Below the pieces are notes generated by a model, which did not search any database, was not told the origin of the DNA, and saw only the letters and a list, made by a program, of their open reading frames with translations. Below are positions 37,135-39,710 of a stretch of 64,000 nucleotides of DNA, one piece after another. The number at the start of each line of letters is the position of its first letter. Positions within the stretch are counted from its first letter, which is position 1. The translations under genes were made by a program, and so were the position numbers. The stretch is from Scyliorhinus canicula (Eukaryota): the NCBI RefSeq assembly GCF_902713615.1, contig NC_052149.1, positions 157,976,379-158,040,378 on the forward strand, read 5' to 3'.

Positions 37135-39710
37135 GGGTGCCTTGGAGAAAAGGTGATACAGGAGGCTATGATCAGATTGTCCAACTCAGTAAGAGACGAA
37201 CCTATGACAACGGTTAAAATAGGAAATCATTATGTGAACCTTCTGGGCGATACCGGCGCTACTATGTTGTCTGTGGAAATAACTCACCGTGGAAATAACC
37301 CCCGGTGAGTCTTCTGTTGTCACTGTGGGAGTAGCCGCTATTCCCATGACTGAGCCAATATCACGCCCGACTAACCTGGAAATTGATGATATCCCCCTGG
37401 TTGATACTATGATTATTTCAAAAACTACGCCCCTCCCTCTGCTTGGCAGACAGACCCTCTACAAATTAGGAGCGGTAATACATTGCATTGATAATAGAAT
37501 GCTTATAGAACGGTCTCAAATACGAGCTCACCAGATGCAAAATTTAATAACTTCTGAACCTGCGCCGAATCGCTGTGTGTCTGTGTTGTATGCTGGCAGC
37601 TGAACGTTAATCCTTACAGCACCACTGTTTAAAAAAAAATTAAACTACAGGAAGTCTTACAAAAGATTACTGACCCTTGGGCACAGCTATTAAAACACCT
37701 GATAGAGTCCAGATGAGAGAATATAGTGACCCATTGCACAGTTTGGTATGCTCGTGAGGATGAGCATGCATACAATTTACAAACACAAAGTCACTTAGGA
37801 CAGCAGACCTCATTGCATATCACTCCTTTTTATTTTTCAGTGTTGTGGGATTAGGAATGTTAGTGACCCATAGTCAGAGGGACCTTTTTAGGATGGGTTT
37901 AACTTCAGAACCCCATTTAATATTGGCCCCAAGACATCCCGCTAAGGCAAAGCAAATAGGAGAAGTGATCAAAGAGGCCAAAGAAAAAAAAGTAATACAT
38001 AGGATTTATATTGAAATGGATGGATGAAATTGCCTGATAGAATTTTATGGCAAATAGGAGGGCAGAGTGACCTGGAAAGAGGAGCAATGGCCCGCTACAT
38101 TTGAAAGACAACAACCTCCCCGAGAGAGCCATCATTTACTCCCTTCAATCCTGGCCCAGGTACTGGCACATCGATTGGCCCAACATAAAAATCATGTTGG
38201 AAAAGTACATTCTGCCCCAGCGCGTAGGGTGCAGTTACAGAAGAACGTTGCCCTGCCCTGGCTTAAAACTATACAGGTTGGCACCAGAAGCAGAAAAAGG
38301 GATAGGGGGAGTGATCAATGCACTATTACAGCAAGGGGTGCTGAAGAGAACACAAAGCCCCTGTAACACCCCTATACTCTCCATTCCAAAAGTAGGAAGA
38401 CCCAACGAGTGGTGGTTTGTGCAAGATCTTAGAGCCATCAATAAAACTGTTATCACTATTGCTCCATTGGTGCCGGACACAAATGCCATTTTGTCTTCTA
38501 TACCACCAACAACGGATACTTTCTCAGCCTTTTTCTCCATTCCATTGAACCCAGAAAGTCAACATCTATTTGCCTTTACATATCGGAATTAACAGTATTA
38601 AAAGAGACTTGGACGCGTGCCAGTTGTCTGCAGGCTCAACATTCCCTCAATATGATGACAATTTAGTGATAGCCTCAGAGGGAGGGCTAGTTTGTCAACG
38701 GAATACCCTTTTGTTATTATCACATCTGGCAGAAAGAGGGCATAGGATCTCAATGGAGAAGTTGCAATTCTGTCAGGAGACAGTTCATCATTTGGGATTT
38801 CAGCTTCAGCAAGGACAGCGGAGGCTTGGGTCTGAAAGAATACAGGCCGCAGCAAGGGTTCCAACTCCGCATACAAAAAAGGAAATCCTCACCTTCCTAG
38901 GCATGGTGGGCTATTGCAGGCAGTGGATACCGGACTATGGAGAGATGGACGCAGTATTGCAAAAGGCTACCCGACAGGATGCCCCTTCAGTTATTGCCAG
39001 AGAGGGAGCAAGCATTTCGTAATCTGAAACAAGCCATGATTAGCGCCTCTGCCGTGGGACTTTCAGCAAGCCCTTTACTCTTTATGTGAATGAAGCAGGG
39101 GGATTTGCAACAGGGGTCCTGGTGCAAGAGCATTGAGGAGGGAAAAAACCCCTTACCTATTACTCGGTGTCCCTATGTGCTGTGGTAAAGGGTATGCCAA
39201 ATTGTTTAAGAGCAGTAGCAGCCATGGCGGCCATAGTAGAAAAAGGAGGCTATCAGTTTTGCTGCTGCTTAATTCATCCGCAACGCAGCATTTTACTGCG
39301 GCTTGACATACTGGGTACGGAGTAATCCTCTCTAAAACCAACTTTACCTACAAGCGAGCACCAGCTGTCAACCCTGCAACACTCTTGCCTGCGCCCTCAG
39401 AAGCAGAACATACGTATGACCATGACTGTTTACAATTGGTTGAAGCCACCACAACCCCTCGACCTGATTTATTGAGTCACCCACGAGAAAATCCGGACAT
39501 CATCTTTTTCACCAATGGATCAGCAAACAGACCAAATGATATGACCCTCCTGGCCGGCCATGCAATAGCAACTCCATTTGAGATAGTGGAAGCTTTTGCT
39601 CTGCCTTCGGGAACGTCTGCTCAAGCGGCCGAATAGTTTGCCCTTACTAAAGCATGTATTCTATCTAAAAATAAAACAGTCAATATTTATACTGATTCCC
39701 GATCCGCTTT

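Follow-up and report, generated by a model that had tools for sequence, protein, structure and literature searches.

Two class I proviruses with common reverse transcriptase lesions point to a defective retroviral sub-lineage, probably copied in trans, in a shark genome

Results

Two proviruses of one family in inverted orientation

The window analysed here is the whole 64,000-nucleotide stretch of Scyliorhinus canicula DNA presented above. It contains two endogenous retrovirus (ERV) copies of one family, in inverted orientation and 8.3 kb apart. ERV-B is a class I provirus that spans 34391-43607 on the + strand, and ERV-A is a class I provirus on the - strand, running from 26092 to ~15971. 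Their features are as follows.

ERV-B
34386..34390, + strand: 5' target-site duplication (TSD), CTACC
34391..34787, + strand: 5' LTR, 397 bp, TG...CA
34791..34808, + strand: primer-binding site (PBS); the first 11 nt equal the human tRNA-Ser 3' end, followed by a 2-nt offset
35851..37114, + strand: gag remnant with capsid and one zinc knuckle, split by a SINE
37150..39710, + strand: pro, PR-RT spacer domain, RT, connection domain and start of RNase H, broken
39897..41852, + strand: end of RNase H and integrase remnant
41862..43010, + strand: env remnant with several stops in every frame, called by eye from its position and TM-like motifs
43190..43210, + strand: polypurine tract, preceding the 3' LTR
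43211..43607, + strand: 3' LTR, 397 bp
43608..43612, + strand: 3' TSD, CTACC

ERV-A
25646..26092, - strand: 5' LTR, 447 bp
21036..25645, - strand: PBS, leader, gag remnant and broken pol, with a large gag-pro deletion at ~24325-24285
16607..21035, - strand: LINE of ~4.4 kb inserted in the integrase, with endonuclease and RT
15971..16606, - strand: integrase C-terminus and start of env

ERV-B presents the order LTR-PBS-gag-pro-pol-env-polypurine tract-LTR between its duplicated target sites, with env assigned by eye; a family search of the env region gave no match. The cis signals (LTRs, PBS and polypurine tract) are all present. The PBS was matched against the human tRNA-Ser 3' end as given in the available text of PMC3299991, and the ERV-A site is that of ERV-B with two transitions. 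Both copies become alignable to Gag relatives from nearly the same position. The LTR pair of ERV-B differs at 10 of 397 sites (2.5%, 95% CI 1.2-4.6%), all of them transitions, which corresponds to an age of ~59 Myr at 2.2e-10 per site per year, a rate that PMC4422223, in its available sections, assumes as its author's guess. At these 10 sites the 5' LTR always has A/T and the 3' LTR always G/C; the ERV-A LTR agrees with the 3' LTR at 6, with the 5' LTR at 3 and with neither at 1.

The homology of ERV-A to ERV-B stops at 15971, where env has just begun, and no ERV-A 3' LTR lies within the window, so that neither a TSD nor an LTR age can be derived for this copy. The LINE in its integrase has ORF1-like, endonuclease and RT frames, a poly-A tail and a target duplication of ~15 nt. 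A run of 147 N at 49707-49853 is an assembly gap outside both proviruses.

Family class and closest relatives

In the protein search, the closest Pol proteins were unnamed products of Pristiophorus japonicus (71% and 64%), and the closest Gag came from Rhincodon typus (63%). The best solved relatives of the closest sawshark Pol (P0001) are the MLV/XMRV reverse transcriptases (E 5e-148 against MLV RT, 9e-57 against foamy virus), and the ERV-B integrase has an MLV-type C-terminal domain (MLVIN_C, E 4e-12). From these two likenesses, both at the level of sequence, we assign the family to class I (gamma/epsilon-like). Lineages II and III of the CmiERVs, class I ERVs of shark and fish, are among the closest known systems. 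The available text of PMC4422223 gives an LTR divergence of 2.4% for CmiERV lineage II and, in those sections, reports no non-autonomous lineage for CmiERVs.

Lesions common to both copies

Lesions were located by a frame-aware alignment of both copies to P0001. The following are common to ERV-A and ERV-B.

B 35890-35892 / A 24551: stop in gag
B 37585..37595 (+), at ~37591 / A ~24130: frameshift at the end of the protease
B 38523..38526 (+) / A ~23210-06: junction of an 18-nt deletion; motif A with the catalytic Asp is gone
B 38598..38599 (+) / A ~23134: junction of a 59-nt deletion; motif B is gone and the frame is shifted
B 38651..38662 (+): YxDD motif; x is Asp in ERV-A as well as in ERV-B
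B 39244..39256 (+) / A ~22472: deletion of ~48 nt (~16 codons) in the RT connection domain

The 18-nt deletion removes six RT codons from both copies, and the 59-nt deletion is immediately followed by a stop codon in both. After YDD, the next codon is Asn in ERV-B and Asp in ERV-A, and ERV-B carries 8 extra nt at the connection-domain deletion. The copies also have in common a +1 frameshift at B ~38256-60 / A ~23474, and the 30 nt around each of the two frameshifts are identical between them.

Losing either the motif-A aspartate or motif B is enough to kill a reverse transcriptase. The motif-A segment is present in all 47 homologues that cover the region (Asp in 46 of them), the motif-B segment in 40 of 40 and the connection segment in 25 of 26, the turtle protein P0029 having a gap there; Asp at x of YxDD was found in none of the 38 homologues with a residue at that position. 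Judged by these alignments, the missing RT segments are not natural indels. No predicted protein with the 18-nt or the 59-nt deletion occurred among the 42 + 6 protein-search matches. The exact 20-nt junction pattern had no match in metagenome contigs, a search that is uninformative for a shark repeat.

The sequence-only reading had already described the absence of the motif-A Asp and of motif B from both copies, the unusual Asp in YxDD and two common frameshifts, and all of these hold against the homologues. It overlooked the ~16-codon connection deletion and the gag stop.

Divergence between the copies and the LTR clock

Homology between ERV-A and ERV-B begins exactly at the first LTR base. 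Within 1 kb of flank none was found, the best match being 16 nt (E 0.43), as expected from the earlier claim that the flanks differ. The LTRs differ in 77 of 389 columns (19.8%), which bears out the clear divergence of U3 described before, while the leader and gag differ at 127 of 1300 sites and pro-pol at 173 of 2250; U3 divergence is thus twice that of the internal DNA (19.8% vs 7.7-9.8%). The RT difference of roughly 6% that had been read by eye over 170 bp was too low: positions 38500-38670 differ at 18 of 171 sites (10.5%).

The perfect TSD of ERV-B and the ~2.5% distance between its LTRs, both noticed in that reading, provide the clock. Had the lesions been passed between the copies after ERV-B integrated, the DNA around them would be expected to diverge by no more than the ERV-B LTRs. 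The RT deletion zone, however, differs at 32 of 372 sites (8.6%) against 10 of 397 in the LTRs (p=4e-4), and the connection zone at 28 of 293 against the same 10 of 397 (p=1e-4); the zones of the gag stop (30/295) and the protease frameshift (28/290) are similarly diverged. Six common lesions, spread over 3.4 kb, lie in such zones of 8.6-10% divergence, outside the strict low-divergence tract described below. Together with the TSD and LTR pair of ERV-B, and with the copies from public runs that run over the 59-nt junction, this supports an RT that was dead before ERV-B integrated, in line with the earlier proposal that the dead RT predates at least one integration. With RT dead by then, ERV-B would have needed the enzyme from another genome.

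Substitutions in pol between the two copies were counted over 504 codons. The uncorrected dN/dS of 0.57 (p=0.005) may reflect a coding ancestor; as a sign of selection it was set aside, because under a base-matched null the 41.5 synonymous changes among 119 compare with 34.5 +/- 4.9 expected (P=0.08). The substitutions are consistent with a split followed by largely neutral drift, to which coding relatives may have made some contribution. A candidate helper-derived patch between the two RT junctions (13/75) was likewise dropped, as it was not unusual in a scan of the whole alignment (P=0.37).

Copies in public sequencing runs

Contigs of four of the 21 matching public runs (X1, X2, X8 and X13) were compared with ERV-B pol. 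The best run contained 0.38 of the words; X1 and X2 bear one organism label and X8 another, and the runs may come from other species. Each run gave 295-2726 contigs on ERV-B pol, hence there are many copies of the family. Letters private to ERV-B are mostly absent from the four runs, so the contigs represent other copies, perhaps of other species, and locus B itself is probably absent. Of the 40 listed sites at which ERV-B departs from the family, 37 have the family letter in ERV-A.

Two records run colinearly over the 59-nt junction. Record 14 of X13 (38574-38746) does so with 3 other letters, no gap and a depth of 48.5, five other listed X13 records having depths of 2-4.4. Record 7 of X1 (38575-38783) has 19 other letters, 1 gap and a depth of 8.9. 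The short side over the junction measures 25 and 24 letters, respectively, where the bridging threshold was 31; a copy that bears the segment should nevertheless be unable to match these letters. The X13 record is neither ERV-A nor ERV-B, because these differ at 13 sites within its stretch. Both records, short of that threshold, suggest that outside copies carry the 59-nt junction. Among the records listed for the four runs, no third copy was seen directly for the 18-nt junction.

The loose ends of the contigs add to this picture. Deletions found only in ERV-B are among the six top-listed loose ends in all four runs; of the common junctions, the 59-nt one is among them in one run and the 18-nt and 48-nt ones in none. 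Copies that keep the RT segments also appear to exist, to go by short records of which those of X8 possibly belong to another species: at least four X8 records diverge from the window at 38597 and continue with the motif-B segment; record 19 of X2 departs at 38525, with 124 letters against 91 in the window. No full helper provirus, nor its PBS or U5, was seen among the short contig records listed. When depth is summed over the bins at the junctions, most runs show no dip; as depth is no copy number, this was given no weight.

At RT, ERV-B differs by 1.7% from a deep X13 record; at the protease end it differs by 6.9% from another. Its distance to X13 records 8 and 9, both deep, is 5-7%. The distance of 5-7% to some deep outside records exceeds half of the ERV-B LTR distance. 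Either the template of ERV-B had drifted, or ERV-B arose by recombination, or its LTRs have been homogenised, making it older than it appears; in the last case the LTR-clock argument is weaker and more weight falls on the outside records.

In X8 and X13, the loose ends that precede 37445 were compared by eye with the two copies (37415-37445 and 24285-24325), and 23 of 30 letters are like ERV-A against 12 of 30 like ERV-B, a hint that the ERV-B protease came from another lineage. The idea that X8 and X13 carry the large gag-pro deletion of ERV-A was abandoned, since the 30 letters fit a divergent protease stretch equally well.

A sub-lineage probably copied in trans

Taken globally, the data are best explained by ERV-A and ERV-B being independent integrations of a coding-dead class I sub-lineage that was copied in trans by relatives, a reading to which we give a probability of roughly 0.8. 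Copying in trans is the most likely route because the same RT lesions are found in separately inserted copies with unrelated flanks and with a divergence above the ERV-B LTR clock. For ERV-A, a single line of evidence, its unrelated 5' flank, suggests an integration of its own. Mechanistically, an ancestral provirus would have been stripped of RT motifs A and B and of some of the connection domain, and would have acquired the gag stop and the frameshift at the protease end. With LTRs, PBS and polypurine tract retained, its RNA could have been packaged, reverse-transcribed and integrated by the proteins of coding-competent relatives. Template switching with co-packaged relatives would then account for the different U3 regions and the mosaic look of ERV-B. 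Later, a tract of ~0.4-0.7 kb upstream of the RT deletions would have been homogenised between ERV-A and ERV-B or near relatives. A wider proposal, that the gag- and RT-dead lineage is the commonest form of the family in several related shark species and was copied in trans over tens of Myr, swapping U3 and protease with its helpers, is tentative, and we rate it somewhat below even odds.

An improbable variant of this history dispenses with a single dead master: deletion alleles would have spread piecemeal by template switching among co-packaged genomes, RT in trans still being needed, and the carriers would not form one clade. The A-B difference of ~20% in U3 against ~8% in RT speaks for it, as do the unequal distances of ERV-B from deep records at RT (1.7%) and at the protease end (6.9%) and the ERV-A-like loose ends before 37445. 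There is also a precedent in the env deletion of canid CfERV-Fc1(a), common to several proviruses, which the available text of PMC6407205 attributes to template switching. However, at least six lesions over gag, pro and RT are common to the copies as a block, which is more simply explained if the copies descend from a single dead genome that recombined now and then.

We hold it to be very improbable that both proviruses integrated coding-competent, that the RT deletions arose in one of them afterwards and that gene conversion then carried them to the inverted neighbour 8.3 kb away. A low-divergence tract between the copies does exist at 38004..38379 (+), with 8 differences in 376 sites (2.1%), a value matched in none of 3000 shuffles and in agreement with the ERV-B LTR age. 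Under a looser setting it covers 37802-38539 (28/733) and extends to the 18-nt junction. Within the strict tract lie site 38224 and the +1 frameshift at ~38256-60. Site 38224 is the sole one of the 40 listed sites where ERV-A and ERV-B agree against the outside family, and there the two copies stand together against nearly all outside depth in all four runs. This tract is probably a product of local conversion or recombination, although template switching from an A-like RNA during the making of ERV-B would be expected to leave the same picture. As it lies inside the tract, the ~38260 frameshift is no evidence of common ancestry. The notion that this frameshift is family-wide also lost its support: the extra base at 38260 is absent in 26-54% of outside depth, and a base near 37985-91 that is present in ERV-B and not in ERV-A behaves similarly (32-79% of outside depth without it). 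Conversion may have reached the 18-nt lesion too, at the edge of the looser tract, and homogenisation of the LTRs could mask an early event.

Against conversion as the general explanation, the 59-nt and 48-nt deletions, the YxDD change and the lesions of protease and gag are found beyond the tract, in DNA that is 8.6-10% diverged, outside contigs run over the 59-nt junction (with a short side of 24-25 letters), and ERV-A has the family letter at 37 of the 40 listed sites. Conversion between the copies, if these two alone carried the deletions, had been named in the sequence-only reading as the result that would speak against it; the finding applies in part, and to the ~38260 frameshift alone.

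Multiplication of a dead provirus as DNA, by segmental or tandem duplication without RNA, with the deep outside contigs arising in this way, is the most improbable of the three: contigs without flanks are compatible with it, and ERV-A, having no 3' LTR, offers no checkable TSD, but the similarity of the two copies sets in precisely at the first base of the LTR, between unrelated flanks, ERV-B has its own TSD, and neutral decay after a duplication predicts something other than 19.8% in U3 against 7.7-9.8% internally.

Relation to known defective elements

The sub-lineage works like known trans-complemented defective ERVs, and its structure is closer to internally deleted elements of the HERV-H and IAP type than to ETn or VL30. 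The earlier comparison with VL30/ETn-type elements therefore stands for the copying in trans and fails for the structure: in the two copies most of the length of gag, pro, RT, RNase H and integrase can be aligned, and gag, pol and env are recognisable. ETn, in contrast, is non-coding and has LTRs nearly identical to those of MusD, whereas U3 differs between ERV-A and ERV-B. VL30 has a largely non-coding internal region and depends on a helper.

The RTVLH2-like subgroup of HERV-H resembles ERV-A and ERV-B as a class I ERV with many copies that have internal pol deletions in common, and the deletion-bearing HERV-H copies were copied in trans. It differs in having a primate host and hundreds of mapped loci, where the present family has two loci and unlinked contigs from a shark-like host. 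In the available text of PMC6629862, a younger HERV-H group of 705 elements shows more pol deletions, with deletions common to subsets. The gamma-like CfERV-Fc1(a) has frameshifts, stops and pol deletions common to 12 of 19 proviruses, read as spread by complementation in the accessible sections of PMC6407205; that group is young, polymorphic and partly intact, whereas ERV-A and ERV-B are heavily decayed and their common lesions remove the RT catalytic motifs. Mouse IAP I-delta-1 and ETn/MusD include defective elements that need the proteins of coding-competent relatives (PMC1331978, in the text available); they are class II, ERV-A and ERV-B class I. Trans-complementation has also been read from common lesions in a deer-mouse ERVK (PMC10089650), and a zebrafish survey divides ERVs into four general classes, of which non-autonomous elements are one (PMC8672886), both according to partial texts.

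Our literature search returned no non-autonomous ERV for sharks or cartilaginous fishes, and neither did the available parts of PMC4977317 and PMC10699275 for cartilaginous fishes; Repbase/Dfam entries or supplements may contain the family. If the wider proposal is true, this would be a first non-autonomous ERV lineage described in cartilaginous fishes, as far as searched. The main reading would extend the trans-complementation of defective ERVs, mainly mammalian so far, to a host that is shark-like and has a slow clock. The mechanism is already well known, and nothing here is mechanistically new. The nested lesions offer ready-made markers with which successive waves of copying can be ordered. 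A caution also follows for neighbouring proviruses, whose common lesions need to be tested one by one: here one appears to stem from local homogenisation and the others from inheritance.

Later insertions and other features of ERV-B

A SINE in gag (~36366-36741) lies between the units of a direct repeat of 93 nt (within 36273-36834), which are 98% alike and far longer than a usual target duplication. A second SINE (39711-39896) interrupts RNase H, where ERV-A has none. Between protease and RT lies a spacer of ~200 codons (37590-38210), also present in the homologue P0002; its two His-x-Thr-like motifs, in our view, recall a 2H phosphoesterase, and a Pfam search with the spacer part of P0002 and P0005 gave no match. 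At 40245-41181, a SCAN/zinc-knuckle fragment, which we take to be a Gypsy-like gag/protease, stands in place of ~420 nt of integrase that ERV-A has kept. No target duplication was found around this fragment, which may have been captured while the genome was reverse-transcribed or have come in as a repair patch.
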